A stretch of 64,000 bases of DNA from an uncultured Candidatus Saccharibacteria bacterium (GCA_964585065.1 CAZPCB010000003.1:67776-131775), one strand, 5' to 3'; shown: positions 5,154 to 53,956, numbered from the stretch's first letter. Numbers and translations are program-made. Notes: generated by a model not told the origin, from the letters alone.

Positions 5154-6356
5154 TTATACCGTAATTTTGATAATATATTTTTTCCCTTTTTGAATAATAT
5201 ATTCTGATACATTATTCTGATTAAGTTCAAAAAAAATATCTTGTATTATTTCTTGATTTACCTTTACTCCCCCTTCTTGAATAGCTCTCTTGGCCTCAGA
5301 ATTAGATAAGTCGAAAACTTTAGCCATTACGGCAAATAGACGCTTATCCTCTATCTCACCTATTGATATAGTCTCTATAGTATCGGGAATTTCTTGTTTA
5401 CTAAATAATTGTTCAAAATATTGCCGAGCTTTCCCCGCCTCATCTTCATTATAATATCGTTTTACAATGGCTGAGGCCAATACCAACTTAATATCTCTTG
5501 GGTTTACTCCTGATTCTAATTGCTTGTGATAATTCTCAATATCAGCATTGGGTATATCAGTAGTGAGACGAAAATAATCAATAATAAGTTTATCTTTTAT
5601 TGCCATTATACTGGTAAACATTTCATTTGGAGTATCGGTAATAAAAATACCATTACCCCAAGAAGTACTCATTTTTCTACCATCTATACCCAGTAATAAT
5701 TCAAAAGTAACGATATCTTGTGACTCTTGATTATAATATTTTTGAACTTTACGCCCCGATATAAGATTAAAATACTGATCATTGCCCCCAATTTCTAAAT
5801 CTGACTTTACCATTACTGAATCATAACCTTGTATGAGAGGATATAAAAACTCCCTTAAACTAATTCTGGTATGGGATTTATGTCTTTCACTAAAATTATC
5901 CCTATCTAACATTTCATTGACTGAGAATATATTGGCTATTTCACTTAGGGTATCAAAAGAAAGGCTTTCAAGCCATTCTGAATTATATCGTATTTCTACT
6001 TTTGATATATCTAAAATCTTTCCAATTTGATCAAGATATCCTTTTAGATTATTATTAATTTCCTCCTTAGTAAGCATTGGTCGCTCTGAGTCTTTATCAG
6101 AAGCATCCCCAATACGAGCAGTAAAGTCTCCAATAATAAGAGTAATATGATGGCCCCAATCTTGCAATTGTCGTAATTTCCAAAAAGGTACAGCTCTTCC
6201 GAGATGTATTTTATCCCCTGTTGGATCAATTCCAAATTTTACTCGAAGTTGCCTACCAGATCCCAATTGCTCCTTTAAATGTTCTTTATCTATATAATTT
6301 GTAACACCTCTTGTTAGCCATTCTTGAACTTTACTCTCATCTGTTATTATTGCCAT
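5154..6356 (-). CDS. tyrS: Tyrosyl-tRNA synthetase
   Basis: Class I core with an IHLG (HIGH-like) motif and KMSTS (KMSKS), plus a C-terminal S4-like domain. Confidence 0.85.
   Translation of the reverse strand: MAIITDESKVQEWLTRGVTNYIDKEHLKEQLGSGRQLRVKFGIDPTGDKIHLGRAVPFWKLRQLQDWGHHITLIIGDFTARIGDASDKDSERPMLTKEEINNNLKGYLDQIGKILDISKVEIRYNSEWLESLSFDTLSEIANIFSVNEMLDRDNFSERHKSHTRISLREFLYPLIQGYDSVMVKSDLEIGGNDQYFNLISGRKVQKYYNQESQDIVTFELLLGIDGRKMSTSWGNGIFITDTPNEMFTSIMAIKDKLIIDYFRLTTDIPNADIENYHKQLESGVNPRDIKLVLASAIVKRYYNEDEAGKARQYFEQLFSKQEIPDTIETISIGEIEDKRLFAVMAKVFDLSNSEAKRAIQEGGVKVNQEIIQDIFFELNQNNVSEYIIQKGKKYIIKITV
5173..5220. repeat. tyrS 3'-end segment that is duplicated at 3754-3800
   Basis: See partner repeat. 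This copy is coding and gives the C-terminal ...IIQKGKKYIIKITV of TyrRS. Confidence 0.6.
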
Positions 6357-12472: not shown

Positions 12473-13153
12473 TTACTGTAGTCTTGACTCTAATGTTTCT
12501 TCTGTATTAATATTATAATCTAATACTATAGCCTGAGCTAATGGTAAATCTATTTGAAGAGTATTTTCTATTGAAGTTTTTTGAAAATAATGTACAAATG
12601 CTTTAATACTATCATGATGTCCAATAATCAAAATATTTTTATCCTCCTTTAATAAGGGTATTACGGTATCATCTATAAGACTATTTACTCTTTTTACAAC
12701 ATCCTCTAAACTTTCTGTTGCGGGCAATAGCTCAGGAGAAATATGAGCATATCTTCTATCATGACTAGGGTGACGAGTATCAGAGATATCAATAGCCTCT
12801 GTTTTTTTATCCCAACTCGATATAATGGATTCAATTTCTGGATATAGCAATAAAGCTTCCTGATGAGTAAGACCCTGTATTTTACCATAATGCCGAGGGT
12901 TTAGTCTCCAGTCATGTATTTCTGGTATCCAAGAGTGATACATATTATTAAGTATAGTCCAACCACTAACAATAGAGCGTTCTAATACCGAATTAATCAT
13001 AATATCTACATGAAATCTTTGATTTAATAACACATTACCCATATGTTGTAATGATTCTCGAGCATTAACCAAGGGGACATCTGCCCAACCAATATATCTA
13101 TTTTCTTGAGCCCAGATACTATCCCCATGTCTAATTAGTATAATTTTTGACAT
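12473..13153 (-). CDS. Histidine phosphatase family protein (divergent phosphoglycerate mutase paralogue)
   Basis: N-terminal IRHGDS (RHG catalytic motif). Lies in tandem with gpmA. The second His motif is degenerate (GHHDSI). Confidence 0.6.
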   Translation of the reverse strand: MSKIILIRHGDSIWAQENRYIGWADVPLVNARESLQHMGNVLLNQRFHVDIMINSVLERSIVSGWTILNNMYHSWIPEIHDWRLNPRHYGKIQGLTHQEALLLYPEIESIISSWDKKTEAIDISDTRHPSHDRRYAHISPELLPATESLEDVVKRVNSLIDDTVIPLLKEDKNILIIGHHDSIKAFVHYFQKTSIENTLQIDLPLAQAIVLDYNINTEETLESRLQ

Positions 13154-13902: not shown

Positions 13903-14976
13903 CTATTCTTCAATTGAACTACTATCTAAACTAGGAGCATCTTCAGACTCTTCTGTTATATCTTCTTTAGCCAATACATCTGCATATAGTTTTTCCAATG
14001 TCTCTGGACTATCTCTTAACACTTTACGAGCTGATTCTAATCCTTGTCCTAGGGTATTTCCCTCTAAATCTTGAATATAAGTACCTTTTTTCTTTAATAC
14101 ACCAACTTTAAGAGCTAAATTAATCAAATCTGTTTCCAATGAAACACCTTCATTATACATGATATCAAATTCAGCAACTTTAAATGGAGCGGCTACTTTA
14201 TTCTTTACAATTTTAGCTTTTGTTCTTGCTCCAATAACTTCTTCTCCCTTTTTAATCTGTGCAATACGCTTAATCTCAATTCTTACTGAGGCATAGAATT
14301 TCAAAGCTTTTCCTCCTGGAGTCTCAACTGGACTTCCATAACCCATCATACCAATTTTCATACGAGTTTGATTGGTAAAGAGAATTGTGGTATTTGCTTT
14401 AGCTGAAATTGCAGTTAATTTACGCAATGCTTGTGACATAAGACGAGCCTGAATAGCTACATGAGAATCTCCCATATCACCTTCAATTTCTGCTTTTGGC
14501 ACAATAGCAGCTACGGAATCTAGTACAATAATATCTACATTTCCAGATTGAACTAAAGCCTCCACAATAGATAAAGCTTCTTCTCCGGTATTTGGCTGTG
14601 AAATAAGCAAATCATCAGTATTTACCTTAAGTTTTTTTGCATATTCTGGGTCCAGTGCATGTTCAGTATCAATGAAAGCTGCTACACCACCTTCTTTTTG
14701 GGCATTTGCAATAACTTGAAGACAAATAGTTGTTTTACCACTCGATTCAGGTCCATATATTTCCACAATTCTTCCTTGTGGAATACCTCCAATTCCGAGA
14801 GCCCGGTCTAGAGAAATTGATCCAGTTGAATAGGCATAAATATCCACCTTTTTCACCTCACCCAATTTCATCATGGACTCATCACCAAATTTACTTTTGA
14901 TATCATCTAATACAGATTGTATTTTATCTTGTTTGCTTGCATTCTTATCAATTCCCTTGGATTTAGTCTTTGCCAT
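13903..14976 (-). CDS. recA: Recombinase RecA
   Basis: Walker [38 protein letters not shown]1/L2 loop regions and 357 aa. Confidence 0.97.
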
Positions 14977-40466: not shown

Positions 40467-42295
40467 TTAATCTAATTACTATGAATACGGGAACAATTAT
40501 CAAAATCTCTGGACCACTTGTTATTGCTGACTCTATGAGAGGAGCTAAAATGTATGACTTGGTTAAAGTAGGAACACTTGAGCTTATGGGAGAAATTATT
40601 GAGCTTAAGGGAGATACCGCTTCTATTCAGGTATATGAGGATACTTCTGGACTTGTTGTAGGAGAACCCGTAAGTTCAACTGGAGAACCCCTTAGCATAG
40701 AACTTGGACCTGGACTTTTAACTGCTGGATTATTTGATGGAATTTTACGCCCCCTTAATGTTATTGCAGAAAAGGCAGCTGCTAATGGATTAAATCCAGG
40801 ATATATTGCAAAAGGTGTTACCGCTCCAAGCCTTAATCGAGAGACAAAATGGGAATTCAAACCTCTGCTCAAAAAAGGAGACAAGGTAATTGCCGGAGAT
40901 ATACTAGGAACAGTACAAGAAACCGAACTTATTATACATAAAATTCTCGTACCCGTAGGAGTATCGGGAGAAATTGCAGATATTAAATCTGGGGAATTCA
41001 CAGTAACTGAGACAATAGCTACAATTGGAGATAATCCCGTACAATTGATGCATAAATGGCCAGTACGTACTCCCCGACCTTATCAAGCTAAACAAATTCC
41101 TACTACTCCTCTTATTACTCAGCAAAGAATTATTGATACCTTTTTCCCTGTACCAAAAGGAGGAGCTGCTGCGGTACCAGGACCTTTTGGAGCAGGAAAA
41201 ACTGTTATACAACAACAATTAGCAAAATGGTCTGATGCCGATATTGTGGTTTATGTTGGTTGTGGAGAGCGTGGAAACGAAATTACCGATGTATTAGTAG
41301 AATTCCCCCATTTAAAAGACCCCAATTCTGGCCGACCTCTGATGGAAAGAACTATTCTTGTGGCTAACACCTCCAATATGCCCATTGCTGCTCGCGAAGC
41401 TTCTGTATATACAGGAATTACACTTGCTGAATATTATCGAGATATGGGATATAATGTAGCGATGATGGCTGATTCTACTTCTCGATGGGCTGAAGCTATG
41501 CGAGAAATGTCAGGAAGATTAGAAGAAATGCCAGGAGAAGAAGGGTATCCCGCCTATCTTGGATCTCGAATTTCAGCCTTTTATGAAAGAGCGGGTATTG
41601 TGACAACACTTGGATCTGAGGGAAGAACTGGATCAGCAACTATTATTGCTGCTGTATCGCCTCCAGGAGGAGATTTATCTGAGCCTGTTAGCCAAGCTAC
41701 CCTTAAAGTAACCAAAGCTTTTTGGGGACTTGATGCTTCTTTGGCTGCAAAAAAACATTTTCCATCTATTCATTGGCTTAATAGTTATAGTTTGTATCGG
41801 GACAATGTAGAAGAATATTTCATTAAAAAAACTCATTCAGATTGGGGAATGCTTCGTGATCTTGCTATGCAAATTTTACAAAAAGAAAATGAACTTGATG
41901 ATATTATAAAATTAGTAGGAATGGACGCCCTATCTAGCGCCGAGAAAATTCTCCTAGATACTGCTCGTGGTCTCAGAGAAGATTATCTTCAACAAAATGC
42001 CTTCGATGAAGTTGACGCTTTTGCCTCCACGCGAAAAATGTATCTGATGTTAAAAGCGATGTTAACCTTCCATCAAGAGGCATTGGCATTCACTCAAGGT
42101 AATACTCAAATTGAAATTAATGATATATTAGAGCTCCCAATAAGAGAATCGATTAGTCAACTCAAGAATATACCTGAATCTAATATAGAGTCAATTGTTA
42201 CTTTAATTGATTCTATTGCTCCTATCATCAAAAATCTCAAAGAGAATAATCAAGACTCAGACTTTGGTATTAATAAAGTAATCAACGGAATTTAG
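40463..42295 (+). CDS. ntpA: V/A-type ATPase catalytic subunit A
   Basis: Walker [10 protein letters not shown], a non-homologous region insertion, and 610 aa. Confidence 0.95.
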
Positions 42296-42304
42296 GATAA
42301 TTAT

Positions 42305-43690
42305 ATGAAGAAATGGTATAACACAATCAAAGAAATTGCCGGACCACTCGTAGTAGTGGAAAAGGTACCCGAAGTTGCATTTGAGGAAATTGTAGAAATT
42401 CGAGATGCAAAAGGAAATATTCGCCGAGGAAGAGTACTTGAGGCTGGTAAAGATACCGCCATTGTTCAACTATTTACCAATACTGAAGGACTTGATACCA
42501 AAACAGCTGAAATTGCATTTCTTGGAGAAACACTCAGATTTGGTGTTGCAGAATCAATGCTTGGAAGAGTATTCACCGGAGCTGGTGAGGTCAAAGATGG
42601 TGGACCCGAGATTATTGCTGAAAAATATTTAGACATCAATGGCGCCCCTATCAATCCTGGACAAAGACAATTCCCTAGTGAATTTATTCAAACAGGAATT
42701 TCTACCATTGATGGATTAAATGCTCTTGTACGAGGTCAAAAACTCCCTATATTTTCTGGAGCTGGACTACCTCATGCTGAACTTGCTGCCCAAATTGCAG
42801 AACAATCTCGTGTGGTTGAAGTAAAAAATGGTACTGATTTGGTAGAGTCAGATGAACCATTTGCTGTTATTTTTGCAGCTATGGGAGTGACTTTTGAAGA
42901 AGCGCAATTCTTTATCGATTCATTTGAAAAGACAGGAGCTATGGAGCGGGCCGCTCTCTTTATCAATACCGCCAGCGACCCTATCGTAGAGCGTATTACC
43001 CTACCAAGACTAGCACTTACTCTTGGAGAATATCTTGCCTTTGAGAAAAATATGCATGTATTAGTTATATTAACCGATATGACCAATTATGCTGACGCCC
43101 TCCGTGAAGTATCAGCCTCCAGAAAAGAAATTCCTGGAAGAAGAGGATATCCGGGATATCTCTATACCGATTTAGCAACTCTGTATGAAAGAGCCGGAAT
43201 AGTCAAAGGTTCCACAGGCTCACTCACCCAAATTCCTATTCTAACAATGCCAGATGATGACAAACAACATCCAATCCCCGATTTAACCGGATATATCACC
43301 GAGGGACAAATTATGGTCAATCGAGAGCTACATAATCAAGGAATATACCCACCGATACAACCAATTGGATCTCTATCCCGAATTGGAGTTAATAAAAAAT
43401 ACAGCCGAGAAGATTTATCCGCTGTCAAAGAGCAAATGGCCTCCTCCTATGCCAAGGGTATAGAAATCAAAGAATTAGCCCTGATTTTAGGAGAATCTGC
43501 CCTATCCGAGACAGATAAAGCCTATATTAAATTCGCTGAAGCCTTTGAGAGTAGATATATTAGACAGGGACGACGAGAAAACCGCACAATTCTAGACACT
43601 CTAGATTTATCTTGGGACTTATTATCCATATTACCAAGAAAAGAACTCAAGAAAATCAAGCCCGAATTTATAGATAAATACTCCAAATAA
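42305..43690 (+). CDS. ntpB: V/A-type ATPase subunit B
   Basis: 461 aa with a RecA-like fold but no canonical P-loop, and [15 protein letters not shown]. Confidence 0.95.
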
Positions 43691-43692
43691 GT

Positions 43693-44307
43693 ATGCCCGC
43701 CGTCAAACCGACTAGACAAGAAGCCCTCAAACTCAAAAAGAAGATTAAAACTGCTTCTCGCGGACATAGTTTGCTCACCGACAAAAGAGATGGACTGATA
43801 CAAGAATTCCTAGCCATTATCCAAGAAGTAATCAAGCTAAGAGGAGAATTAACCCCCAAAATTGTAGAAGCCATACAATTATTTGAATTTGCTCAGACCA
43901 AAATCTCAACCGAAGCCATCCAAGAGCTAATACATCTCTCACAAGCCAAAACCTATCTGGAATTACAAAAAAAATCTATTATGGGAGTCACAATCCCACA
44001 TATAATCCCTCATTTACAGGGAGACCCTTTTCAATATGGTACATTAGGCACCCCCAAAGATTTAGACCAAGCCCTCTTAACCTTGCAGAATATATTACCT
44101 CTATTAGTCAAATTAGCTGAGATAGAATTCACCGCTAGACTACTCGCTGAGGAAATAGAAGCCACCAGAAGACGAGTCAATGCTCTAGAATATGTCATCA
44201 TACCCGAGATGAAAACCAATCTCAAATCCATCCAAAATGCACTAGACGAACTCACCCGCCAAGAAAAAGTCACCATAATGAAAGTCAAAGAAATTTTGGG
44301 ATTGTAG
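43693..44307 (+). CDS. ntpD: V/A-type ATPase subunit D (central stalk)
   Basis: N-terminus MPAVKPTRQEALKLKKKIKTASRGHSLLTDKRDGL, which is typical of subunit D. Confidence 0.85.
   Translation: MPAVKPTRQEALKLKKKIKTASRGHSLLTDKRDGLIQEFLAIIQEVIKLRGELTPKIVEAIQLFEFAQTKISTEAIQELIHLSQAKTYLELQKKSIMGVTIPHIIPHLQGDPFQYGTLGTPKDLDQALLTLQNILPLLVKLAEIEFTARLLAEEIEATRRRVNALEYVIIPEMKTNLKSIQNALDELTRQEKVTIMKVKEILGL
44249..44307 (+). repeat. Left direct repeat: the ntpD 3' end, duplicated at 48835-48893
   Basis: AACTCACCCGCCAAGAAAAAGTCAC is identical in both copies. Over the 59 nt that follow, the copies are about 85% identical, and both end in a stop codon. Confidence 0.8.
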
Positions 44308-44326
44308 GGAGGAGTTGTCTGATAAT

Positions 44327-45103
44327 TTAAGATTTATTTTTTAATCTTATTTCTGCTGCCTCAACATATTGTCTTTCTTTTTCGATACCAATAAAATTAC
44401 GACCATATTTTTTAGCAACAAAAGCAGTTGTTCCGCTACCCATAAAAGGATCTAAGACTATATCCCCTTCATTTGAACTAGCTAAAATAATTCTTTTGAG
44501 CATTTCTTCAGGTTTTTGTGTTGGATGTAATGCTTTCCCATCATTTCCCCTTAATCTTTCTTTTCCTTGTACTAAAGGCATTTCCCAAAAATCTCTCATT
44601 TGTTTTGCTTTACCATCTTTTTGTTTTTCAGGATTTATTTCTTTTATTTTATCATAGTTAAAAATCCAACCACTACCTTTTACTGCCCAGATTACAAATT
44701 CTGTTGAATGAGTAAAAACTCTCCTTGTCATATTTGGCATTGCATTTGTTTTATACCAAGTTATTATATTATTTATTTTATAGTTTAATTGTTTTAAGAC
44801 AATCATAACTTCACCAATATTATGATAGCTACAGGCAATATAAATAGAACCGTTATTTTTGAGTGCCTTATGACATCCCGCAATCCATTTTCTTGTAAAT
44901 TGCATATATTCTGGAGCTGTCATTTTATCCCACTCTTCATTTACCATAAACCAATCTCCTCCTGTCTTATTTCCCTTCCAGTGTAGTCCATTCCCTGAAA
45001 GGTTATAAGGAGGATCTGCAAAAATAAGATCAATTGAGTTTGGTTCAATTTTTGTCATTAAAATTTCATTACAATCTCCATTATGGATAATATTTTTTTT
45101 CAT
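44327..45103 (-). CDS. N6-adenine DNA methyltransferase, beta class, CcrM/M.HinfI-like (GANTC family)
   Basis: IIHNGDC, IDLIFADPPYNL (motif IV) near the N-terminus, ...HPTQKPEEML..., and DPFMGSGTT (motif I) near the C-terminus. Collinear similarity to CcrM/M.HinfI throughout. Confidence 0.85.
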   Translation of the reverse strand: MKKNIIHNGDCNEILMTKIEPNSIDLIFADPPYNLSGNGLHWKGNKTGGDWFMVNEEWDKMTAPEYMQFTRKWIAGCHKALKNNGSIYIACSYHNIGEVMIVLKQLNYKINNIITWYKTNAMPNMTRRVFTHSTEFVIWAVKGSGWIFNYDKIKEINPEKQKDGKAKQMRDFWEMPLVQGKERLRGNDGKALHPTQKPEEMLKRIILASSNEGDIVLDPFMGSGTTAFVAKKYGRNFIGIEKERQYVEAAEIRLKNKS

Positions 45104-45117
45104 AGTTTTTATAAAAA

Positions 45118-46935
45118 TTAAGCAATAATATTCTTATACCAAGAGTTAATAATATTTTGAATTTCGTTAAGCCATTGATTTGAATCTGTAAAGTTTTGTG
45201 AATTATGAACTATTTCATCATATAAATAAGCTATCTCTCTGTGATTTAGAGTCCTTCCCTGCTCCTTAATTTTCACAAGTATTTTTAAAATTTGTACAAA
45301 GTTATTTATTGTTAGAGGTATTATATTTTGTTTTTGCCCTTCATATTCATACTTTACAGCTACCCAAAAAGTATTTAGTGTATCCCTATGAATTGTAGGT
45401 GCAATAAATAAACAGTATGTTTTTTTATCTCTATTCTGACTTTCAAAATCTCTTAAATGTCTCATCACTGGTTGTCCTTCATTATACCATTGATCACGAC
45501 TTTTGAGCATAGTTACCTCACAAATAGCATTAAATTCCTTATAGTAGCACTCAATGTCTGGAGTATTTGCAGGAGCTGTAAAAGTTGGCTCATTATCATC
45601 TCCAACGGGATAATTGGGTTTTATTTTCAAAGCATCATTTAAAGCATTAAGCCCTAATGCGGATAACTTTTCTAATAAAACTGGTCTGTCCTCAAAATCA
45701 AATATATTTTCTAATTTATGAATATAATCATTAATTTGATCTATATCTTGCGAGTTTTGATGATTTTCTTCATCTTGTAATTCTCTTCTATACTGTCTAA
45801 GATCTGAAATATATTTCTTTAATTCTTGATCATTAAGATTTTCATAATTTCTAATTTGAATTTTTTTTATATTTAGTTTTTTTTCATATTTTTTAATTTC
45901 AATAATAATACTTGATAAAATCTTTTTATATTCTTTTTCTGATTCCCACGGTAATTTAGGTTCTAAAATGTCAGAGACATATTCTAAATATTGTTCCTTG
46001 GTTTCAAATTGTATAACTGATGCATTATCAAATTTAAGTAAATTATCAATTTCTACTTTTCTTCTCGGTTCTAAATCAACATAAAATCCTCCACCTCGAA
46101 TAAAAAGAAAGCGGGTTAAACGAAAATATCTTATGGCATTATCTCCATAATCCTTTAAATTTTTAAGCATTTTATTTATTTCTTCTGGCTTGCTTGTACC
46201 TAAAAATTCTTGAGCAAAAACTTTTTTATAATTATCAAAAATTTGCTTTTGTTCCTGCTTACTTTTTCCTTTTTGCTCCTCTCTCAGCCTCAAAATTTGA
46301 TTTGCATAATTCTCAATATCTTTAAAATTAACAAGACTAGGTATAAATAAAGAAAATTCTTGTTTACTAATTCCTTTTGTTTTTTCACCATTATTTAAAC
46401 ATTTTTGATTAACTAAGTTTATTAGATGTAATGTTCCAATAAAAGGTTTTATATTATACCCTTCTTCTAACTTATAGTCTGATGAATCTGGATTTGGTAA
46501 TTGCCATTTTAGGAAACTTCTAAAGAATATTTCTCCTAAATCAAAATCATCTTGTAGGAATAATCTTCCTAAACTAGTAATAAAGATTTTTTCATCTTTT
46601 ATTATAACAAGTCCAATCTTTTTAAGTGGATTTATTGACTGTCGACCTCTCATTGCTGGATCCTCATAATTTTTTGAGTTAAAAATTTCTTCTGCTTGTT
46701 TAAAAGAGATATTTTGTGTCTGATCATCAATCAAATCAATTTGCTCTTTATTTAAACCGTTATAAAATTGTGTACTTCCGTACCCATACACTCTCTCTTT
46801 TATCAATAAAATTTGAAATTTTCTTTGATTTTCCAAATTCCAATATTGACCTTCTAATTGACTTAGAACTATTAAAAAACTCCTTAGTCTTTCAGGATTT
46901 CTTAAAGTTGTTGTTATTGACCAAAGTTTTTTCAT
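45118..46935 (-). CDS. AlwI/PleI/MlyI/N.BstNBI-family type IIS restriction endonuclease
   Basis: N-terminus WSITTTLRNPERLRSFLIVLSQLEGQYW matches the family hallmark (SPRSPEK...FEGSYW in N.BstNBI as recalled). C-terminal YCLFIAP segment is shared. 605 aa against about 604. Confidence 0.75.
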   Translation of the reverse strand: MKKLWSITTTLRNPERLRSFLIVLSQLEGQYWNLENQRKFQILLIKERVYGYGSTQFYNGLNKEQIDLIDDQTQNISFKQAEEIFNSKNYEDPAMRGRQSINPLKKIGLVIIKDEKIFITSLGRLFLQDDFDLGEIFFRSFLKWQLPNPDSSDYKLEEGYNIKPFIGTLHLINLVNQKCLNNGEKTKGISKQEFSLFIPSLVNFKDIENYANQILRLREEQKGKSKQEQKQIFDNYKKVFAQEFLGTSKPEEINKMLKNLKDYGDNAIRYFRLTRFLFIRGGGFYVDLEPRRKVEIDNLLKFDNASVIQFETKEQYLEYVSDILEPKLPWESEKEYKKILSSIIIEIKKYEKKLNIKKIQIRNYENLNDQELKKYISDLRQYRRELQDEENHQNSQDIDQINDYIHKLENIFDFEDRPVLLEKLSALGLNALNDALKIKPNYPVGDDNEPTFTAPANTPDIECYYKEFNAICEVTMLKSRDQWYNEGQPVMRHLRDFESQNRDKKTYCLFIAPTIHRDTLNTFWVAVKYEYEGQKQNIIPLTINNFVQILKILVKIKEQGRTLNHREIAYLYDEIVHNSQNFTDSNQWLNEIQNIINSWYKNIIA

Positions 46936-46937
46936 AA

Positions 46938-48746
46938 TTATTTCCTTACTCTACAATAAAATATTCTCTCAGCATTGCCATCTACATCACTTTTTCCAGT
47001 AGTAAATGCCTTATAGTCTTTTTCAAATATTTCAATATCTCCCTTTTGTTTTAAAATCCTAACAATGTCTTCATCTTTTATTCTTGCATTAGACCTATCA
47101 TCTTTTGAATTTGCTGTATTATTGTAAGATAATAATATATGGTTACAATTTGCATTTTTAATCAGATCTTCAAAAACCTGTGTGGCATTTTTCAAACAAT
47201 AAGCACTTTTTATATGTGATCGATCCATTTTCCTACCAATACCTTCAACTTTTGGCTGTTTCCACTCTGATAAATTTTCTAATAAATGATAAGCATCACT
47301 ATATTGTCTTGAATTATACGGGGGATCAATATACAAAACATCACAGGAAATTTTACGAATCAATAGGTTGGCATCTTCATTGTAAACCTCATTTTGTGAG
47401 TTATTTGAATAATCAATGTCTGGGACTAAAAGTTTTAGTGGATTAACCGAATCAAGTTTTTTTCTAAACGCATCATAATGTCCAACTGTATTTGCAACTT
47501 TATCAACAGCATAAATTAAAGAACAAATTAGAATATTTTTCTCCTCTTCATTTTTTGCAATTTTTTCTATCTCTTCACGAATTGCACCTATTTTTTTTGC
47601 ATTTTCAATTGTAAAAAAAGTACCCCCAAAATTTTTTGAAAAGTAATTTTCATCTTTTACCTCTAAGCTATTTAAATGGTTAATTCTTTGAATAATATCC
47701 TTTTTAACATTATTTTTTGTGCCTAAAAATGCTTTTAGACAGACATAGTTTGAATTTAATAAGTCATTGGATATAATCTTAATATTCCCATTATTAAACC
47801 TATCTCCTACTACTCCAGTACCTGAAAAAACATCAAATAATGACTCTATATCACCACATTTCTCAGCGATTATATCTTCAATAAAACCAATTAATTTATA
47901 TTTATTACCTAAATATCTACGATTTTGTAATTGAAAAAAGTTATTCTTTGATTGTTTTGGTTGAAAATATATCTTTTCTATTTTCTTAATACTTGTCTCA
48001 TACACTGGTTTTTCTATTTCTAAATAATCAAATAGTCCACTTTGTATACAATCAGCAACATATTCTAAAACTTTTTTATCATCCTTTAACTCTTCAAAAA
48101 AACTATACTCATCATTTTCAGAAATAATCAAAAAATCTATTACAGGGATTCCCATTAGCTCTCCTGCTTGAGTTATTTTTTTAACTACTTCTTTATCTCT
48201 TTCACTTGGTGAGGAGTCTCCTGAGGGATGATTATGTACCAAAATTATACTTGCTGAATGTAATTCAACAGCGGGATGAAAAATTTCTCTTGGATGTAAT
48301 AAACTTTTATCTAGCAACCCAACACTGATTATTTCTTTTTTAATTAAAACATTTCTTGCATTAAGATATAAGCAAACTAAATATTCTTTTTTCTTGTCTC
48401 TCAAATCATAATTTAAATCTAAAACATCTTTTGAATTTTTGACAACTATTTCTTTTCCTTTTTTCTCTTCATAATATCTTTTTAATAAAGCAATGGAGGC
48501 AACAATTTGTAAGGCTTTTGCTTGCCCAATTCCATCAATTTTTTGTAAATCATCAACAGTAACATTTAAAAATTTATCACTAAATTTTTTTACAACTTGA
48601 TTAGCAAGCTCCTGTACATTCTTACCTTTTATCCCACTTCCTAAAACAATAGCCAAAAGATCACTTTTAGAAAGTGCCTCTGGTCCTTTTTTGAGAAATT
48701 TTTCTCTTGGACGAAGTATTACTGGAGTGTCTTTAATTTTAGACAT
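46938..48746 (-). CDS. Fusion protein: N-terminal RadC-like JAB/MPN domain plus C-terminal Dam-like (D12 class, alpha) N6-adenine DNA methyltransferase
   Basis: The N-terminal 220 aa carry a RadC HhH region and a JAMM-type motif HNHPSGDSSPSERD. The C-terminal half has YLGNKYKL, DVFSGTGVV (motif I), ISNDLLNSNYVCL, IDPPYNSRQY (motif IV) and HILLSYNN. This is collinear with E. coli Dam. Confidence 0.8.
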   Translation of the reverse strand: MSKIKDTPVILRPREKFLKKGPEALSKSDLLAIVLGSGIKGKNVQELANQVVKKFSDKFLNVTVDDLQKIDGIGQAKALQIVASIALLKRYYEEKKGKEIVVKNSKDVLDLNYDLRDKKKEYLVCLYLNARNVLIKKEIISVGLLDKSLLHPREIFHPAVELHSASIILVHNHPSGDSSPSERDKEVVKKITQAGELMGIPVIDFLIISENDEYSFFEELKDDKKVLEYVADCIQSGLFDYLEIEKPVYETSIKKIEKIYFQPKQSKNNFFQLQNRRYLGNKYKLIGFIEDIIAEKCGDIESLFDVFSGTGVVGDRFNNGNIKIISNDLLNSNYVCLKAFLGTKNNVKKDIIQRINHLNSLEVKDENYFSKNFGGTFFTIENAKKIGAIREEIEKIAKNEEEKNILICSLIYAVDKVANTVGHYDAFRKKLDSVNPLKLLVPDIDYSNNSQNEVYNEDANLLIRKISCDVLYIDPPYNSRQYSDAYHLLENLSEWKQPKVEGIGRKMDRSHIKSAYCLKNATQVFEDLIKNANCNHILLSYNNTANSKDDRSNARIKDEDIVRILKQKGDIEIFEKDYKAFTTGKSDVDGNAERIFYCRVRK

Positions 48747-48834
48747 TATATTTTATTACTTTTTTCATTTACTATTATACCACAATTTATACTTCTCTTC
48801 CAATTTATGTACTAGGTGACTACAATTTGTAGCC

Positions 48835-48893
48835 AACTCACCCGCCAAGAAAAAGTCACAATTATGAAGGTCAAAGAAATTTTAGAATTGTAA
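48835..48893 (+). repeat. Right direct repeat (second copy of the ntpD 3' end)
   Basis: AACTCACCCGCCAAGAAAAAGTCAC AATTATGAAGGTCAAAGAAATTTTAGAATTGTAA would encode ..TRQEKVTIMKVKEILEL*. Confidence 0.8.
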
Positions 48894-49172
48894 TTTCACG
48901 ATTTTTAATTAAAAAAATAGTTTTGCTGAATTTTATTGTGGGCATACCCTAACTGTCCCATTTTTGAAGACATTTGAGTTGTGCTTTAGATCTCTAAAGA
49001 AAAGATCTAAAAACTCCAGTTATCCGATTTTCTCGGACAACTCACTTCCCTTCCAATCTATCTTGGATGTTTCTAATATTTTTTAGTTTATATAGAGATT
49101 ATTAAGGGAACATCATATTGACAAAATGTGTTATATATATTAATGTTTTGATACCTAAGAGAGATTTTTCTC

Positions 49173-49562
49173 TTGAAGGATTGTTCTTTTACCTACAAAA
49201 ACATGACAACTGATCACAACCCTGTGACTAAACTTAAAGAAGAACTTGAAATTACAATAGCTCAAGATCAAGATTTAGCAAATGTGATGGGTATATCCTT
49301 AAACCAGCTATATGCTATTTATAATCTTATTTATAATTTAGCTGGAAATACAACAGATAGAGACCGTAATATCACGCTATCTTATTATTCAATAAAAGGG
49401 CTTATTACTACGACAGATATACATAAAGTAGATTCAGATAAAGCTTTAGATTTGTGGAATATAGCCCGAGCCCATTATAATGATTTATTATCTAGTGGAT
49501 CTATCCAATATGAGCCACTTGTATCTAGACTAGATTCTGATATATTGATTTTAAATATTTAG
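49173..49562 (+). CDS. Hypothetical protein (129 aa, or 119 aa from the ATG at 49203)
   Basis: ORF only, no recognised motifs. Followed by a strong terminator. Confidence 0.35.
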   Translation: MKDCSFTYKNMTTDHNPVTKLKEELEITIAQDQDLANVMGISLNQLYAIYNLIYNLAGNTTDRDRNITLSYYSIKGLITTTDIHKVDSDKALDLWNIARAHYNDLLSSGSIQYEPLVSRLDSDILILNI

Positions 49563-49575
49563 AGAGGTTGTGATT

Positions 49576-49616
49576 AAAAAACTACTATCCCGATTACGAG
49601 TATCGGGATTTTTTAT
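49576..49616. terminator. Bidirectional rho-independent terminator
   Basis: AAAAAA-ctact-ATCCCGAT-TACGAGT-ATCGGGAT-TTTTTAT: a perfect 8-bp stem flanked by A-runs on one side and T-runs on the other. The stop of the P-type ATPase gene lies in the U-tract. Confidence 0.8.
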
Positions 49617-52324
49617 TTCCCCTCCAATCTCACTCGCCATTTGTAGACTTCGGCGACGGCGATGACGATAGCGATGGAGATAAATCCATAATAAATAGAA
49701 TCATATAGCGAAACTGGGGTGAATTGTAAGATTCTCTGGAGGAATGGGAGGGTTATCATAGCTACTAAGATGAGAGCTGAGGCGGCGACTGCTAGGTTGA
49801 TCATACGATTGGAGAAGAAACCTATGTTGAATAGAGATTCTTTTGGGGATCGCATATTATAGCTATTGGCTAATTGCATCAAGGCTAAGCAGAGGAAAAA
49901 CATTGTTCTCGCCTGCTCTATACCATTGACTAAATAGGCTAGATAAATCCAGAAGCCTATGACGGTCATAGTTAAAGTCATAACTATAATATAGGGGTAG
50001 GTATTGGGTGAGACTACTTTCATATTGGCTGGCAGTGGTTTTTCTAACAAAATTCCTTTATGGCTTCGCTCGGTGGCAAGGGCAATATCTGAAATTCCAT
50101 TGGTCACCAAGTTTAGGCACAAAACTTGTATAGCTAAAAGTGGTAGCGGCAGCCCTAAGCTGAGGCTTAATATAAAGAGCAAAATCTCCGCAATACTGGT
50201 AGTGATGAGGAAAATACTAGTTTGTTGTATATTCCTGAATATAACTCTTCCCTCTTCCAGAGCCGAGATAATGCTGACAAAATTATCATCAGTGAGCACA
50301 ATATCACTAGCCTCTCTTGCAACATCAGTACCTCTGATGCCCATAGCTATGCCTATATCGGCTTTTTTGAGGGCTGGGGCATCATTTACCCCGTCTCCCG
50401 TCATAGCCACGATATGCTTGTGTTTTTGTAAGATAGTGGCTACTCTGAGCTTACTTCTTGGACTTAACCTAGCTAATACAGAAATATGCTTGAGTTTTTT
50501 ATATAACTCTTTATCAGATAAAGCTTGAATCTCATCATCGGTCAAAGCTTCTCCCGTCTCGTCAATCAGCCTAATAGATTTAGCAATAGCAAGGGCGGTA
50601 TCTTTATGATCTCCTGTAGCCATAATTACTCTGACTCCTGCCTTTTTGGCCTGTGTAATGGCATCAGCTACTTCGGCTCGAGGTGGGTCTATAATCCCAA
50701 CTATACCAACAAAGACTAAACCTTGAATTTGCTCAGTTTGAATAGCTGTTACCCCTGATTTTTCATCTCTATAAGCAAGAGCTATAACCCGCATTGCTTG
50801 TTTAGAGAATTGAACTATTTGCTGATTAACCTTCTCAATATGATTATCTGTTAAATCAATTATATTACCTTTTTTATCTAAAATTTTATTACTTAATTTC
50901 AGCAAAGTTTCACTAGCCCCTATCACCATCATCTGATATAAGTCCTGATCCTGATTATTAACATAGCTGGCTCTAAATTTATTCTCAGAGCGAAAAGGTA
51001 AATCAGCTAATCGATGCCATTCATTATCTAATAAATCTTTATTCAAATTAGATTTGAGGGACAAAACAGATAAAGCCACTTCGGTAGGGTCTCCAATACT
51101 TTTAATAATAGATTTACCATTATCTAGCTTTTCCTCATATAATTGACCATTGTGAGCTAGCCCCGCAATATGTACTAATTTGGCAATAGCGGGATAGTCT
51201 AGTGGGAGAATTGTATTATTATTTTGCTTAAATTCTCCCTGTGTCTCTAAGCCTCGACCAGTAATATCTATTATTGGCTCATCCAAAACCCATAATTTTT
51301 GAACCGTCATATTATTCTCAGTCAAAGTTCCCGTTTTATCTGTAATAATAGTATCCATCACAGCAAGAGATTCCGTGACTGGAAGAGACCTTATAATAGC
51401 CTTTTTATCACTCATTCTTTTAGCTCCAATAGCTAGTACCACTACCAAAACTACTGGCAAACTCTCTGGTATACCACCCACTAGAGCAGACAAAGTAAAA
51501 CCTATCATCTCATCTAAAGGTAGTCCCCGAAACCAAAATCCAATCACAAACAGAATTGCTGCTGAGCTAAAAGCAAAAACAGCTAATTGACGAGCTAAAG
51601 TAGCAGTTTGAGTATGGAAATGAGTCTTTTCTACTGGTAGTTTTTGAATATCCTCGGCAATTGTCCCAATTTGAGTATTCATACCTGTAGCCACTACCAC
51701 AGCTTTTGCCCAGCCAGTAGCTACCAGAGTGCCCATCCAAACAGAATTCACCATATCGCCTATACCAACTTCTTTTGTAATTATTTTTAAGGATTTTTGA
51801 GTTGGTTGCGACTCCCCCGTCAAAGCCGACTCTATGGTCTGTAATTCTACAGCCTCAATCAATCTAGCATCAGCTGGGACTTTATCTCCCTCTTCCAAAA
51901 TAATAATATCTCCCGGAACTAAATCTTTAGCATCATGCTCCTCCAGATGGCCATCGCGATACACCTTAGTTTTGACCAAAATTTTCTGAGCCAGAGCCGA
52001 CACCGCTCTCTCTGCCCTATACTCTTGAGAAAACCCAATAATAGAATTGATCAACACAATAACAATAATAATCCAAAAGTCCACCCAATGATCAAAGATA
52101 GCTGAAAGTATAGCAGATAAAATCAACACATAGACTAATCCATTATGAAATTGTTTTAGAAATGTCCAAATAGGTGAGGTACTCTGTTTGGGAGTTAATA
52201 TATTTTTACCATATTGTACTTGTCTAACTTTTATCTCTTGAGAAGTAAGCCCCCTTGTATTAATAGCTAACAGTCCTAATATTTCTTCTATCGTAAGCTG
52301 ATAATATTCTTTTCTTTGTTTCAT
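49613..52324 (-). CDS. P2-type cation (probably Ca2+) transporting P-type ATPase
   Basis: DKTGTLT phosphorylation motif, TGES, IPESLP (PEGLP-type), and GDGVNDAPALKKADIGIAMG. 903 aa. Confidence 0.9.
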   Translation of the reverse strand: MKQRKEYYQLTIEEILGLLAINTRGLTSQEIKVRQVQYGKNILTPKQSTSPIWTFLKQFHNGLVYVLILSAILSAIFDHWVDFWIIIVIVLINSIIGFSQEYRAERAVSALAQKILVKTKVYRDGHLEEHDAKDLVPGDIIILEEGDKVPADARLIEAVELQTIESALTGESQPTQKSLKIITKEVGIGDMVNSVWMGTLVATGWAKAVVVATGMNTQIGTIAEDIQKLPVEKTHFHTQTATLARQLAVFAFSSAAILFVIGFWFRGLPLDEMIGFTLSALVGGIPESLPVVLVVVLAIGAKRMSDKKAIIRSLPVTESLAVMDTIITDKTGTLTENNMTVQKLWVLDEPIIDITGRGLETQGEFKQNNNTILPLDYPAIAKLVHIAGLAHNGQLYEEKLDNGKSIIKSIGDPTEVALSVLSLKSNLNKDLLDNEWHRLADLPFRSENKFRASYVNNQDQDLYQMMVIGASETLLKLSNKILDKKGNIIDLTDNHIEKVNQQIVQFSKQAMRVIALAYRDEKSGVTAIQTEQIQGLVFVGIVGIIDPPRAEVADAITQAKKAGVRVIMATGDHKDTALAIAKSIRLIDETGEALTDDEIQALSDKELYKKLKHISVLARLSPRSKLRVATILQKHKHIVAMTGDGVNDAPALKKADIGIAMGIRGTDVAREASDIVLTDDNFVSIISALEEGRVIFRNIQQTSIFLITTSIAEILLFILSLSLGLPLPLLAIQVLCLNLVTNGISDIALATERSHKGILLEKPLPANMKVVSPNTYPYIIVMTLTMTVIGFWIYLAYLVNGIEQARTMFFLCLALMQLANSYNMRSPKESLFNIGFFSNRMINLAVAASALILVAMITLPFLQRILQFTPVSLYDSIYYGFISIAIVIAVAEVYKWRVRLEGK

Positions 52325-52336
52325 ATATCAACAATA

Positions 52337-53956
52337 TTATTGTCCCTCATATTTATCCATATGAGCAGTTTTAGGTATTTTGACTACAAATACTGCCCCC
52401 TGTGAAGAGCCGGGGTTTTTGAGTTTCAATGTCCCATGATGCATCCCGACAATAGTACGAGAAATAAATAACCCAAGCCCTGAACCATTAGGATTTTGAT
52501 CCCCGGCAACTCGAGCTCGGAATCGAGATTTAAAGATTTTATCTTTTATATTAGGATCTATTCCAGGACCATTATCTCTAAATCGAATTTGTAATCTATC
52601 CCCCTCATCAATTATCGTAATCCAGACTTTTCCTTTTCCATAATATACTGCATTAGATAATAAATTTTGAAATACCTCTTTCATCCTTACACTATCCATA
52701 GAAACTTTAAAATCTTCTCCTATTGATTTCAAAATAACTTCAGTATCAAAATATTCTAATATATATTTATTGTCCTGAAGAAGATAATTTAATTCATCTT
52801 TTACATTTACTTCTGGTCGCATAATAACTCCAAATCTATTCGCTTTAATTGCATTAAAAGCGAGTATATCATTTACAATAGCAATAAGTCTCTGAGCATT
52901 AAGATATACTCTAACCAAATCATCATGAGTTGCTTGATTCATCTTATATTTACCTTGCCATTGTTCCAAAATGAGAGATAAGAATCCATTTAATGATGTA
53001 AGTGGTGTGCGCAATTGATGAGATGTCATACGAAGAAATAAATCCTTTGACTCAATTGTCTCAATCAATTTCTTATTAGCTCGCTCTAATTGATGTTCTC
53101 GAGTAATTCCTTTTAATAATTCTCTTAATAATGTATAGGCGACTCCAGTAAATATAATAAAGAATATTATACTTACTATTACCTCATAGGTATTTTTAGA
53201 TACAAAAATATATACAAATAAAATAATACCCATTAATCCGAGTAATATTTCAGATAAAATCATTTTGATATCAAAGAGATGATGTTTTAAAATAGCATAA
53301 GAAGTAAAGATAGTCAAAAATATTGTAGATAATTGTCCAGCCCAATTAAATGCAACTATTCCTATCCATGGAAAAATTAAATTGGTTAAAAAAGCTGGGT
53401 AAGTAGATAAAGATGTCCCTAAGATAATGAATAGAATTTGCTTTTGTTTAAACCCTTTAAACTCCTTGTATTTTAATATCAATTCATAAAATGCAAGATT
53501 AAATGTTGCAATTAAGAATATAACATATATCCAGAAAAGCTTACCAAAAATAATTTTATGCTCCATACCATCTTGTAGGACAACTGAGCTAATTATATAA
53601 GGGGTGGTCCATGTTAATATAAGTAGGAAAGTCAAGAAAATTAATAAAGCTTTTTCTAATATTTTATTCTTTTTGACATATATAAAACGATTTACAAAAA
53701 GTAAAAATACCATTGGAATCAAAAGAGCAGAAATATATAGTAATTTTGTAATTCCTAAAAGAGCATCTACATTATTAGTAGACCGATATATAATCATCAT
53801 TACAATCCAACCAACTACAGCTAATGCAACCAATGAAAATAATTTTCCACTTTTATCTTGTTTTTCATTAGAGCTAAAAAAGAGCAATAACCCTAAAGCA
53901 AGATTTGTTACTCCAATTGTGATTAGTAATATATTTATTACATCAAATCCCACCAT
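52337..53956 (-). CDS. Sensor histidine kinase with polytopic N-terminal sensor domain
   Basis: About 7 N-terminal transmembrane helices, an H-box HQLRTPLTSLNGF, and N/G boxes (NLLSNAVYY, DNGPGI, GSGLGLFISR). Confidence 0.8.
   Translation of the reverse strand: MVGFDVINILLITIGVTNLALGLLLFFSSNEKQDKSGKLFSLVALAVVGWIVMMIIYRSTNNVDALLGITKLLYISALLIPMVFLLFVNRFIYVKKNKILEKALLIFLTFLLILTWTTPYIISSVVLQDGMEHKIIFGKLFWIYVIFLIATFNLAFYELILKYKEFKGFKQKQILFIILGTSLSTYPAFLTNLIFPWIGIVAFNWAGQLSTIFLTIFTSYAILKHHLFDIKMILSEILLGLMGIILFVYIFVSKNTYEVIVSIIFFIIFTGVAYTLLRELLKGITREHQLERANKKLIETIESKDLFLRMTSHQLRTPLTSLNGFLSLILEQWQGKYKMNQATHDDLVRVYLNAQRLIAIVNDILAFNAIKANRFGVIMRPEVNVKDELNYLLQDNKYILEYFDTEVILKSIGEDFKVSMDSVRMKEVFQNLLSNAVYYGKGKVWITIIDEGDRLQIRFRDNGPGIDPNIKDKIFKSRFRARVAGDQNPNGSGLGLFISRTIVGMHHGTLKLKNPGSSQGAVFVVKIPKTAHMDKYEGQ

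Follow-up and report, generated by a model that had tools for sequence, protein, structure and literature searches.

A restriction-modification (RM) cassette lies directly behind ntpD, the gene for V-type ATPase subunit D, between two copies of the end of this gene, and it has probably been spread by ordinary homologous recombination and not via an integrase of its own. The insertion is of a type already described (PMC2853133), and the ntpD locus is a further example, in a CPR bacterium. We analysed it within the window, i.e. the whole stretch of 64,000 nt, where the following features are found; loci used for comparison are given as L numbers.

43100-43260: left recombination breakpoint in the 3' part of ntpB (sliding identity tables)
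43693-44307, plus strand: ntpD, V-type ATPase subunit D, 204 aa, intact (PF01813, E 4e-51; TIGR00309)
44249-44307, plus strand: proximal direct repeat, the final 19 ntpD codons and the TAG stop
44327-45103, minus strand: DNA methyltransferase, beta-class N6/N4, CcrM/HinfI-like, 258 aa (PF01555, N6_N4_Mtase, E 5e-63)
45118-46935, minus strand: AlwI/BspD6I-family (type IIS-like) restriction or nicking endonuclease, 605 aa (PF09491, RE_AlwI, E 6e-87)
46938-48746, minus strand: fusion of RadC (JAB) to a Dam-like D12 N6-adenine methyltransferase, 602 aa (PF20582, UPF0758_N; PF04002; PF02086)
48747-48834, minus strand: conserved right-end module with a putative promoter and a palindrome
48835-48893, plus strand: distal direct repeat, an untranslated copy of the ntpD end of a different allele, closed by TAA
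48894-48958: 65-nt flank past the distal copy, common to L034 and not in L011 or L017
49018-49066, minus strand: Bro-N-type gene remnant (..GSELSEKIG*) and terminator-like hairpin, abutting a fragment that resembles the 3' UTR of the Ca-ATPase gene
49203-49562, plus strand: orf119, no match in Pfam or PHROG
49613-52324, minus strand: P-type Ca2+-ATPase, the conserved far border of the slot, L017/L018-like (94-97% nt) from the stop codon on

The end of ntpD is present twice

The last 59 nt of ntpD recur in the same orientation beyond the cassette, at the positions given by an earlier sequence-only reading of this DNA, and the two copies agree at 53/59 positions. Their starts are 4586 nt apart and the repeated length is 58-59 nt. 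The identity of the first 25 nt stood, while the figure of about 85% for the rest came down to 82% (28/34); the second copy does end in a stop codon, as had been claimed. When both strands of the 64-kb window were searched with up to 18 mismatches allowed, no further copy of the ntpD end was found. With two copies in total, the repeat is neither dispersed nor a low-complexity motif, and the caveat raised in the same reading, that it might be a widespread motif of this kind, falls away.

Chance similarity, or a chimeric assembly that joined two strains at the ntpD end, is a very improbable explanation. Assemblers do struggle at this place, five contigs (L003, L010, L006, L009 and L036) breaking at or just past the ntpD stop, but a blastn search of the repeat against the whole window gave E = 1e-18, which speaks against chance, and different pipelines independently recovered the whole structure from at least three samples (Logan SRR8942238, ENA ERZ3624467 and ERZ27292658), which indicates that it is not an assembly artefact. 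Three more repeat-bracketed islands (L018, L025 and L043) were present in NCBI and ENA contigs.

Within the clade, the allele most commonly met is that of the proximal copy, and the ntpD protein is identical on 18 metagenome contigs. The distal copy is another allele, its translation ending in ..LTRQEKVTIMKVKEILEL versus ..ILGL for ntpD, and either copy could be the one that restores the coding end of the gene. Differences between proximal and distal copies are synonymous in 5/6 cases in the window, 5/5 in L034, 3/3 in L043 and 3/3 in L025, and comparison of five untranslated distal copies placed 8/9 variable columns at third codon positions. Since the copies differ almost only at third positions, they derive from functional ntpD alleles and not from decay. 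An upstream extension of the duplication into the right-end module was considered and dropped, the local alignment being no better than that of shuffled sequence. Elsewhere in the window, a similar 3'-end duplication, of tyrS, surrounds a gene for an S49 peptidase (3729-5219).

The cassette encodes a predicted AlwI-group RM system

Exactly three minus-strand genes lie between the copies, in agreement with the sequence-only reading, and all three are intact: the methyltransferase, the RE_AlwI nuclease and the RadC-Dam fusion. The stop codons of ntpD and of the methyltransferase gene are separated by 19 nt (44308-44326), one fewer than the 20 stated there. The closest solved structure to the 258-aa methyltransferase is CcrM (6pbd, E 1e-59). 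In the endonuclease, PF09491 covers residues 106-549 and Nt.BspD6I (2ewf) aligns over 91-575 (E 1e-34); the majority of its homologues (n = 2563) are from CPR bacteria. The 602-aa fusion, which is the leading gene of the cassette operon, also stands beside R and M genes in L034, L037 and L040. Judged by its gene content, a full-length RE_AlwI nuclease with adjacent CcrM-like and Dam-like methyltransferases, the cassette is a predicted member of the AlwI/BspD6I/PleI/MlyI group. We tried to deduce the recognition site from avoidance of GATC, GGATC, GAGTC or GANTC and saw no useful depletion, the observed-to-expected ratios of GAGTC/GACTC and GGATC/GATCC in the window being 0.94-1.4.

The right-end module contains a minus-strand promoter candidate, TTGGAA (48803-48798) followed after 18 nt by TGgTATAAT (-10 hexamer at 48779-48774), which is the top promoter-like site across 44000-49800, and the cassette (44308-48834) would be transcribed from this promoter of its own. 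The module also occurs in L028 and L034, with the same RM cargo, and in L018 with a different one. It includes the palindrome CTACAATTTGTAG (48820-48832), which we considered as a recombinase motif and found unsupported: CTACA-N3-TGTAG is found 2 times in the window for 1.5 expected and is absent from the left end. GC content is 40% in ntpD and 38.5% in the Ca-ATPase gene, but 27.8% in the island. The island is thus below its flanks and within the lowest decile of 1-kb tiles, but it is not unique in this, other native stretches of the window being equally low.

The segment behind ntpD is a hypervariable slot

The layout ntpB-ntpD-[variable]-Ca-ATPase-HisK is kept in at least 20 related loci of Paceibacteria (CPR), with a distance from ntpD to the Ca-ATPase gene of 658 to >5700 nt. 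About 14 different sequences start right at the ntpD stop; among the cargo are a type I RM system accompanied by a toxin-antitoxin pair, a further nuclease of the AlwI family, lectins, and a Bro-N gene with an uncharacterised protein of about 360 aa. The slot is a hypervariable site for accessory and defence genes, which starts exactly at the stop codon. A second copy of the ntpD end was found in several lineages with differing cargo, in islands of 1.4-4.6 kb that hold cargo only.

Two pairs of loci show the site with and without an insert. L018 equals L017 plus about 2.1 kb within an ntpD-end repeat that is 56/56 identical, and its distal copy runs into the L017 flank, giving a clean occupied/empty pair, but with non-RM cargo. 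The RM cassette and the repeat of the window recur in L034, whose nuclease is 98% identical, and L011 has a single copy and no cassette; this pair is nearly clean, the left flank being 94.8% identical and the right flank aligning from 56 nt before the stop, with the first 65-85 nt past the stop differing. The view of the cassette as an accessory segment inserted at the ntpD 3' end is thereby borne out, the site being reused in relatives and insert-free sites existing.

The empty state foreseen in the sequence-only reading, in which ntpD would be followed directly by orf119 (its "49173 gene"), was not encountered. Both in the window and in L043 this gene adjoins the Ca-ATPase gene, but in L043 it does not follow ntpD, so that it cannot count as a regular ntpD neighbour; its homologues were confined to the organism of the window, the short contig P0122 and L043, and exact look-ups of orf119 and of the nuclease returned the same organism only. 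Relatives lacking the cassette have after ntpD a TMEM175-like gene (L017, L021) or a Bro-N remnant with a DUF6194 gene (L011). Among 25 related loci there was no homologue of 48896-49612 and no empty site with the window's own right flank; the first 10-17 nt of the 65-nt flank recur in L028 and L043. We had taken 49037-49066 for a duplicated end of the Ca-ATPase gene, but the comparison with L034 showed mostly a Bro-N remnant fused to a short Ca-ATPase UTR-like fragment. The segment 49018-49066 is debris of earlier rearrangements in the slot.

The cassette lies within a recombination tract

Left of the breakpoint in ntpB, up to about 43150, the window is 96-100% identical to L017/L018/L019, and right of it 90-98% identical to the group of L002-L016/L020/L034. 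From 43260 to 48260 identity to L034 is 92-100% and to L017-L019 just 74-86%, and from the Ca-ATPase stop the window is again L017-L019-like (96-100%). As read from this profile, the 3' part of ntpB, ntpD and the cassette evidently form an L034-like tract within an L017/L019-like genome. The foreign tract that holds the cassette starts in ntpB, about 1.15 kb upstream of it, and at least the most recent entry or replacement of the cassette was therefore by homologous recombination. The profile shows that the cassette and the adjoining ntpD allele came into this genome, or were last replaced in it, through homologous recombination with DNA of another lineage. Over the last 600 nt of the island, L034 is less similar, at 91-94% identity; the tract may for this reason reflect the exchange of one allele for another where the cassette was already present, and would then be silent on the first insertion.

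These profiles bear on another explanation, that the structure is old and vertically inherited, with duplication and cassette ancestral and the empty sites produced by secondary deletion between the repeats. Cassette, module and distal copy are common to the window, L028 and L031-L036, a segment between direct repeats is easily deleted, and the debris in the slot records earlier rearrangements, all of which would fit. Yet window and L034 agree at 96-100% in the cassette though at only 66-86% in ntpA and ntpB, the ntpD allele next to the cassette is foreign to the genomic background of the window, and this mosaic profile already points to a cassette presence that is incongruent with phylogeny. 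Moreover, the distal copies vary like coding sequence and not like decaying DNA, and the same module and repeat enclose different cargo in L018. We consider vertical inheritance improbable.

Search for a recombinase

The sequence-only reading had seen no integrase or transposase in the cassette, and this was confirmed when every ORF from ntpA through HisK was scanned against Pfam and NCBIfam. Tyrosine or serine recombinases were likewise absent from the islands of the window, L018, L025, L034, L043 and L016, and about 20 ORFs elsewhere in the 64-kb window gave none either. A 359-aa protein, frequently encoded next after ntpD, was considered as a hidden recombinase and discarded, with no match in Pfam, PHROG or the PDB and a sequence that is not recombinase-like. 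An exact-pattern scan for the junction between module and ntpD end returned one chromosomal instance in metagenome contigs and zero in viral contigs, and phage and plasmid collections held no close relative of the island. With at least six islands and some 20 further ORFs devoid of a recombinase, the description of the insertion as site-specific is not supported.

The enzyme could nevertheless act in trans, a reading that we regard as possible but doubtful. Here the ntpD 3' end would serve as attB, and the small, integrase-less cassettes would bring an attP with a substitute gene end in it; they would be integrated and excised by a recombinase whose gene lies at another place in the genome or on a helper element. 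Parallels for mobilisation in trans are known in CIMEs (cis-mobilizable elements, moved by the integrase of a related element), integron cassettes and Xer-dependent modules. Classically, integrase-mediated insertion is recognised by a fixed crossover point and a repeat that reaches the gene end, and such a geometry is found here: the left edge lies 56-58 nt before the stop in the window, L018, L028, L034 and L043 (66 nt in L025) despite adjoining at least two unrelated sequences, the promoter module (window, L018, L028, L034) and a Bro-N remnant (L043), and the right boundary is the stop codon itself. The first 25 nt of the repeat are among the two most conserved ntpD 25-mers in the clade. L018 is a clean insertion relative to L017, with no donor tract left of its island, although the evenly spread differences from L017 say little there, and differences restricted to third positions are equally expected between an element-borne and a host copy of the gene end. 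In another CPR genome (L037-L039) the same RM trio even stands beside a tyrosine recombinase gene and an array of repeat-separated cassettes.

Against a recombinase in trans, none was encoded in any ntpD island or among the other window ORFs scanned, and neither the viral nor the metagenome contig scans contained a circular form. No inverted-repeat core was seen within the repeat, the inverted arms of a dif-like (Xer) site were unconvincing by eye, and the neighbouring palindrome is neither enriched nor present at the left end. The cassette is embedded in a 5-kb homologous-recombination tract whose start lies 1.15 kb upstream. The tyrS end, with the same footprint, would need another recombinase or site; with both footprints in one window, a general mechanism is favoured rather than a dedicated att site.

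A proposed model of insertion by transformation

There is in our estimate about an even chance that the cassette is a recombinase-free "insertion with long target duplication", spread by transformation and RecA, with its second copy of the gene end as homology arm. The last 56-59 nt of ntpD are present once as the working gene end and once as an untranslated copy beyond the cargo, and no recombinase of the cassette's own would be involved. Once the DNA has been taken up, two homology arms would be available, the body of ntpD and the distal copy, and both would pair with the single conserved ntpD gene of the recipient. As both arms match this gene, RecA could insert the cassette whatever the recipient's downstream sequence, and recombination between the two copies could excise it and leave ntpD intact. 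One-sided homologous recombination with an illegitimate join is a plausible origin of the first duplication. Genes for RecA and for a PilB-type ATPase lie in the window. Recombination genes are kept in CPR bacteria, and Saccharibacteria are naturally competent (PMC12455944, PMC10187176); RM insertions with long target duplications come mostly from naturally competent species (PMC2853133).

Several observations weigh against this recombinase-free reading. The fixed left edge and the extension of the repeat to the gene end recall integrase insertion, the L018 island has no co-imported donor tract on its left, a 59-nt arm is short for RecA-dependent transformation, and no empty site with exactly the right flank of the window was found. 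More tentatively still, recombinase-free cassettes that bring along a copy of a conserved housekeeping-gene 3' end, and sometimes a shared promoter module, might be a route by which integrase-poor, naturally competent CPR bacteria gain accessory and defence genes, through RecA insertion into diverged strains and scarless removal. If so, the ntpD and tyrS footprints in one 64-kb window would reflect a general, so far undescribed route of gene gain in CPR bacteria, and the repeat length of 56-70 nt might mirror a recombination intermediate.

Comparison with known systems

A publication of 2000 reportedly also underlies the "insertion with long target duplication" class. RM insertions with target duplications of >30 bp and no mobility genes are already known, and their first examples were type IIS systems (Furuta, Abe and Kobayashi 2010; PMC2853133). 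As in those, R and M genes lie here inside the insert with no mobility gene in or next to it, the insert is <20 kb (4586 nt spacing) and lower in GC than its flanks, the direct repeat exceeds 30 bp, and the repeat is single in insert-free genomes (here L034 versus L011, with a mismatch of 65-85 nt past the stop). Some of the published repeats overlap a gene 3' end; the ntpD repeat differs in lying wholly in the coding end of a housekeeping gene and stopping at the stop codon, in having two copies that are different functional alleles, in bracketing non-RM cargo elsewhere together with a shared promoter module, and in its CPR host. The cassette thus adds a CPR example to a class described between 2000 and 2010.

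With integrase-mediated islands at tRNA, tmRNA or protein gene 3' ends, and with CIMEs, the ntpD islands share repeats from the 3' end of the target, one copy that completes the gene, a fixed left boundary and a site used by varied cargo. Unlike them, they have no integrase in or near them, are very small, contain only cargo and show evidence of import by homologous recombination. Integron gene cassettes also differ, as no integrase is found here, the only bracketing repeat is the ntpD end and the cassette carries its own promoter. Should a trans-acting recombinase be responsible, a family of tiny mobilisable cassettes would use the ntpD end as a new attachment site.

De Vries and Wackernagel are said to have reported homology-facilitated illegitimate recombination during natural transformation in 2002. 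In this process (described in PMC3240628) a single homologous anchor, which here would be ntpB/ntpD, imports adjacent foreign DNA in a competent bacterium, and it could explain the first junction at ntpD. Classical events, however, delete recipient DNA and leave no duplication, and junction microhomology is not demonstrable at ntpD.

If the duplicated end is a portable homology arm, it would explain how the cassette crosses between lineages 15-30% apart in their core genes and would suggest a simple design for gene insertion into competent CPR bacteria. Gain and loss of defence genes in these tiny genomes with few recognisable mobile elements are poorly understood, and the ntpD locus offers a concrete, well-replicated case. 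Like defence hot spots between core genes, the slot has conserved flanks (ntpD and the Ca-ATPase gene) and strain-variable content, rich in RM, toxin-antitoxin and other defence genes, that is exchanged through recombination in the flanks; unlike them, some of its variants hold a duplicated core-gene end inside. Immediately after a gene of an essential operon, type II and type I RM systems, toxin-antitoxin pairs and other cargo are swapped at this hot spot, and part of the traffic is bracketed by a duplicated gene end that behaves like a living allele.

The ntpD-end repeat and the genes between its copies

The last 59 nt of ntpD (44249-44307) are present again at 48835-48893 in unchanged orientation, with 53 of 59 positions identical: the initial 25 nt match throughout and the other 34 nt at 28 positions. 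A blastn search of the repeat against the whole window gave E = 1e-18, and a scan of both its strands that allowed up to 18 mismatches found no third copy, confirming the duplication around restriction-modification (RM) genes described in the sequence-only reading. The 25-nt start of the repeat is one of the two most conserved 25-mers in ntpD. The distal copy remains in frame with a stop codon (..LTRQEKVTIMKVKEILEL, against ..ILGL in ntpD itself). The interval between the copies, hereafter the island, consists of three intact minus-strand genes:

44327-45103, minus strand: beta-class N6/N4 methyltransferase, with CcrM and HinfI-type enzymes as nearest relatives
45118-46935, minus strand: AlwI-family endonuclease, aligning along its full length with Nt.BspD6I, a GAGTC nickase
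46938-48746, minus strand: 602-aa fusion of RadC/JAB and a Dam-like D12 methyltransferase, from domain matches

The same reading had placed 20 nt between the ntpD and methyltransferase stops; the packing is indeed close, and the gap measures 19 nt. It had also proposed comparing the base composition of the cassette with that of its flanks. The GC content of the island (27.8%) does lie below that of ntpD (40%) and the Ca-ATPase gene (38.5%), but this is weak evidence because other native stretches of the window are equally AT-rich. The RadC part of the fusion includes UPF0758 N-terminal and HhH parts, and the fusion heads the RM trio in no fewer than three distinct genomic settings (seen in the window and in contigs L034, L037 and L040).

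A hot spot of variable accessory and defence genes follows ntpD

The relatives of its ntpD place the window in uncultured Paceibacteria/Parcubacteria (CPR). Across more than 20 related loci, the order ntpB, ntpD, variable slot, Ca-ATPase (minus strand), HisK (minus strand) is conserved, while the stops of ntpD and the Ca-ATPase gene lie anywhere from 658 nt to >5.7 kb apart. Depending on the strain, about 14 unrelated sequences start directly at the ntpD stop codon. These sequences and their varied contents (see the table) therefore mark the slot as a hot spot where accessory and defence genes collect.

Table. Slot content in related metagenome, NCBI or ENA contigs (L handles)
L016: type I RM system plus KilA-N, SocA/Panacea and DUF3800 genes
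L007: another AlwI-family nuclease, unlike that of the window
L015, L025: T5orf172 protein and lectin-domain proteins
L002, L008, L012, L014, L018, L020, L043: recurrent 360-aa protein, with or without a Bro-N protein
L017, L021: TMEM175-like gene only

The recurrent protein of about 360 aa, encoded directly after ntpD, is 70-86% identical among strains (10630-11709 in L018); for its L018 type, of 359 aa, Pfam, PHROGs and PDB yielded no relative. Judged by eye, its Cys...His...Asp arrangement (..ECAGRTLIAS..APGHTF..YFDAN..) recalls a transglutaminase- or papain-like protease. An AT-rich 5' region (..TAGTTTATTATAT..ATTATATCATA..TTTTTACTCCAAAAAA.., plus strand) recurs before several unrelated minus-strand slot genes (L014 ~12620-12680; L008 ~2655-2715; L028 3442-3500; L043 4427-4490; L013 3189-3215) and may be a promoter or 5' UTR type shared by slot cassettes.

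Occupied and empty sites show a real insertion

L018 is 97% identical to L017 through ntpD and then contains an extra ~2.1 kb, made up of the 359-aa gene and a Bro-N gene, followed by a second ntpD-end copy. The two L018 copies are identical (56/56), and the second continues into the sequence that follows ntpD in L017. The RM trio of the window is also present in L034 and L035, two independent ENA assemblies, with a nuclease 98% identical, the same right end and the distal ntpD-end copy. An assembly artefact, contradicted by these independent assemblies of the structure, is thus highly improbable. In L011, both flanks align around a single ntpD end, and the first 65-85 nt past the stop differ. 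Two further islands between ntpD-end repeats carry lectin cargo (L025; repeat 64/67, boundary 66 nt before the stop) and a 375-aa gene (L043; boundary 56-57 nt before the stop).

The inserted segment proposed from the sequence alone is therefore borne out by empty and occupied sites (L017/L018 and L011/L034), whereas its site-specific character is undemonstrated. The proposed native neighbour of ntpD, the open reading frame orf119 (49203-49562, plus strand; the 49173 gene of that reading), does not generally adjoin ntpD: its homologues occur only here, in a short contig and in L043, where it adjoins the Ca-ATPase gene. A bidirectional terminator lies between orf119 and the Ca-ATPase gene at 49587-49609.

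A conserved module forms the right end of the island

The window, L028, L034 and L018 share a conserved stretch of about 88 nt that runs from the ATG of the first cassette gene to the distal copy; between the window and L018, identity here is 87% across 149 nt despite different cargo. This module carries the best promoter-like site of the region, on the minus strand (TTGGAA-18 nt-TGgTATAAT), and a 13-bp palindrome. Beyond the distal copy, 48894-49066 is debris, in which a 65-nt flank common to the window and L034 is accompanied by a Bro-N gene remnant and by a piece similar to a Ca-ATPase UTR. The remnant (..GSELSEKIG*) is joined via a 9-nt overlap (GGAAGTGAG) to a piece like the L028 Ca-ATPase 3' UTR, and a terminator-like hairpin lies at 49018-49042, within the debris region 48959-49066.

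The two copies behave like alleles

Five of the six differences between the proximal and distal copies of the window are synonymous (P = 0.002 by chance, with 21% of the possible single-base changes synonymous here), as are all those in L034 (5/5), L043 (3/3) and L025 (3/3). In five distal copies, untranslated in place, third codon positions account for 8 of 9 variable columns (P ~0.001, binomial estimate). The distal copies must therefore have served as working gene ends for most of their history, or be repeatedly overwritten from such ends. Such allele-like copies fit any model with one copy from the donor or element and one from the recipient gene. Simple decay of an old duplicate is excluded by the same bias.

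The cassette lies in a tract imported by homologous recombination

The ancestry of the locus was read from sliding identity between the window and related loci. Up to a point within ntpB at ~43150, the window matches L017/L018/L019 at 96-100% identity, and from the Ca-ATPase stop onward it again matches L017/L018, at 94-97%. Over ~43260-44307 its identity is instead 90-98% with the L002-L016/L020 group, against no more than 74-86% with L017-L019. Identity to L034 is 66-86% left of 43150, 92-96% across ntpD and the 3' part of ntpB, and 96-100% over 44262-48260; it then falls to 91-94% in the final 600 nt of the island with the module, and to 82% farther right. This profile shows that the cassette was imported together with ntpD and the 0.5 kb of ntpB ahead of it; judged from these identities, homologous recombination from an L034-like lineage is demonstrably involved, at least in the latest arrival or replacement. 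The drop near the right end allows a second reading, in which the import may have replaced most of a cassette already present. The mosaic identities and the allele-like nature of the copies both contradict vertical inheritance with secondary loss, which we regard as unlikely.

The V-ATPase operon and its surroundings form a fine-scale mosaic (43100-43260, 40700-42000, 52300-53200), the nearest relative alternating among L017, L018, L019 and L020 every few hundred to few thousand bases, a pattern indicating that these CPR lineages exchange DNA by homologous recombination very often. The window encodes RecA (13903-14976) and a PilB-type pilus ATPase (24547-27537; 996 aa, with two T2SSE stretches and an MshEN domain), both predicted to be relevant to DNA uptake and recombination capacity. 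Recombination genes are retained in CPR bacteria, and Saccharibacteria are naturally competent (PMC12455944, PMC10187176).

Origin of the duplication and a second case at tyrS

The ntpD case is a CPR example of an RM insertion class already described, the long target duplication, defined by R and M genes within an insert of <20 kb, a repeat of >30 bp that is single in the insert-free genome, and the absence of mobility genes; its earliest described members were type IIS systems, and most of its cases come from competent bacteria (PMC2853133). Added interest comes from one repeat and promoter module serving different cargo, from an untranslated copy evolving like coding sequence, and from a second gene-end duplication within the same window. 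We infer, as our preferred account, that the ntpD-end duplication arose once or a few times, the first plausibly through a homologous join on one side and an illegitimate join on the other, a process described in PMC3240628. Cassettes would since have spread via transformation and RecA, with the body of ntpD as left homology arm and the distal copy as a short right arm; if the two copies recombined with each other, the cassette would be lost while ntpD stayed whole.

The chief alternative, a site-specific recombinase working in trans at the ntpD end, we consider possible but doubtful. It draws its strongest support from the left boundary, which stays constant at 56-58 nt ahead of the stop beside two unrelated neighbours (the module and the L043 Bro-N remnant); the right boundary of the repeat falls at the stop codon, and the left one in L025 lies 66 nt before it. 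Attachment sites in tRNA genes show such a pattern of gene-end repeats with fixed boundaries. L018 has no donor tract on its left, and in another CPR genome the RM trio has as neighbours a tyrosine recombinase gene and an array of genes spaced by repeats. Against this, no recombinase, integrase or transposase, was found in any island at the ntpD site or among ~20 other ORFs of the window, exact-pattern scans of viral and metagenome contigs found no circular junction but one chromosomal instance, and the cassette of the window sits within a long imported tract.

A second such footprint in the same window also counts against a trans-acting recombinase. The last ~70-120 nt of tyrS (5154-6356, minus strand), covering 5148-5219 and beyond, recur at 3729-3800, and the copies flank a single S49-peptidase gene (3902-5035, minus strand). 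They are 76% identical over 72 nt (blastn E = 4e-14), with gapped similarity reaching about 3751-3869 and 5170-5291, and the in-frame stop and a similar peptide are kept (..NNILEYIIQKGKKYIIRIIQ vs ..NNVSEYIIQKGKKYIIKITV). The footprint is that seen at ntpD, again without a mobility gene. With two different gene ends bearing one footprint, neither accompanied by a recombinase, a general mechanism appears to fit better than a site-specific recombinase in trans, the tyrS case being known from the window alone. The idea of cassettes carried by homology arms deserves a systematic survey.

The same RadC::Dam-R-M trio occurs in another CPR genome (L037 5031-17131, also L038 and L039; GCA_046766315.1, JBJNWD010000007.1), with a nuclease 84% identical. 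There it adjoins a divergently oriented tyrosine recombinase gene and is followed by an OLD-family nuclease gene and more same-strand genes, separated by repeated units of 50-180 nt; the RM and OLD genes are bracketed by a 52-nt repeat. This layout resembles an integron-like cassette array.
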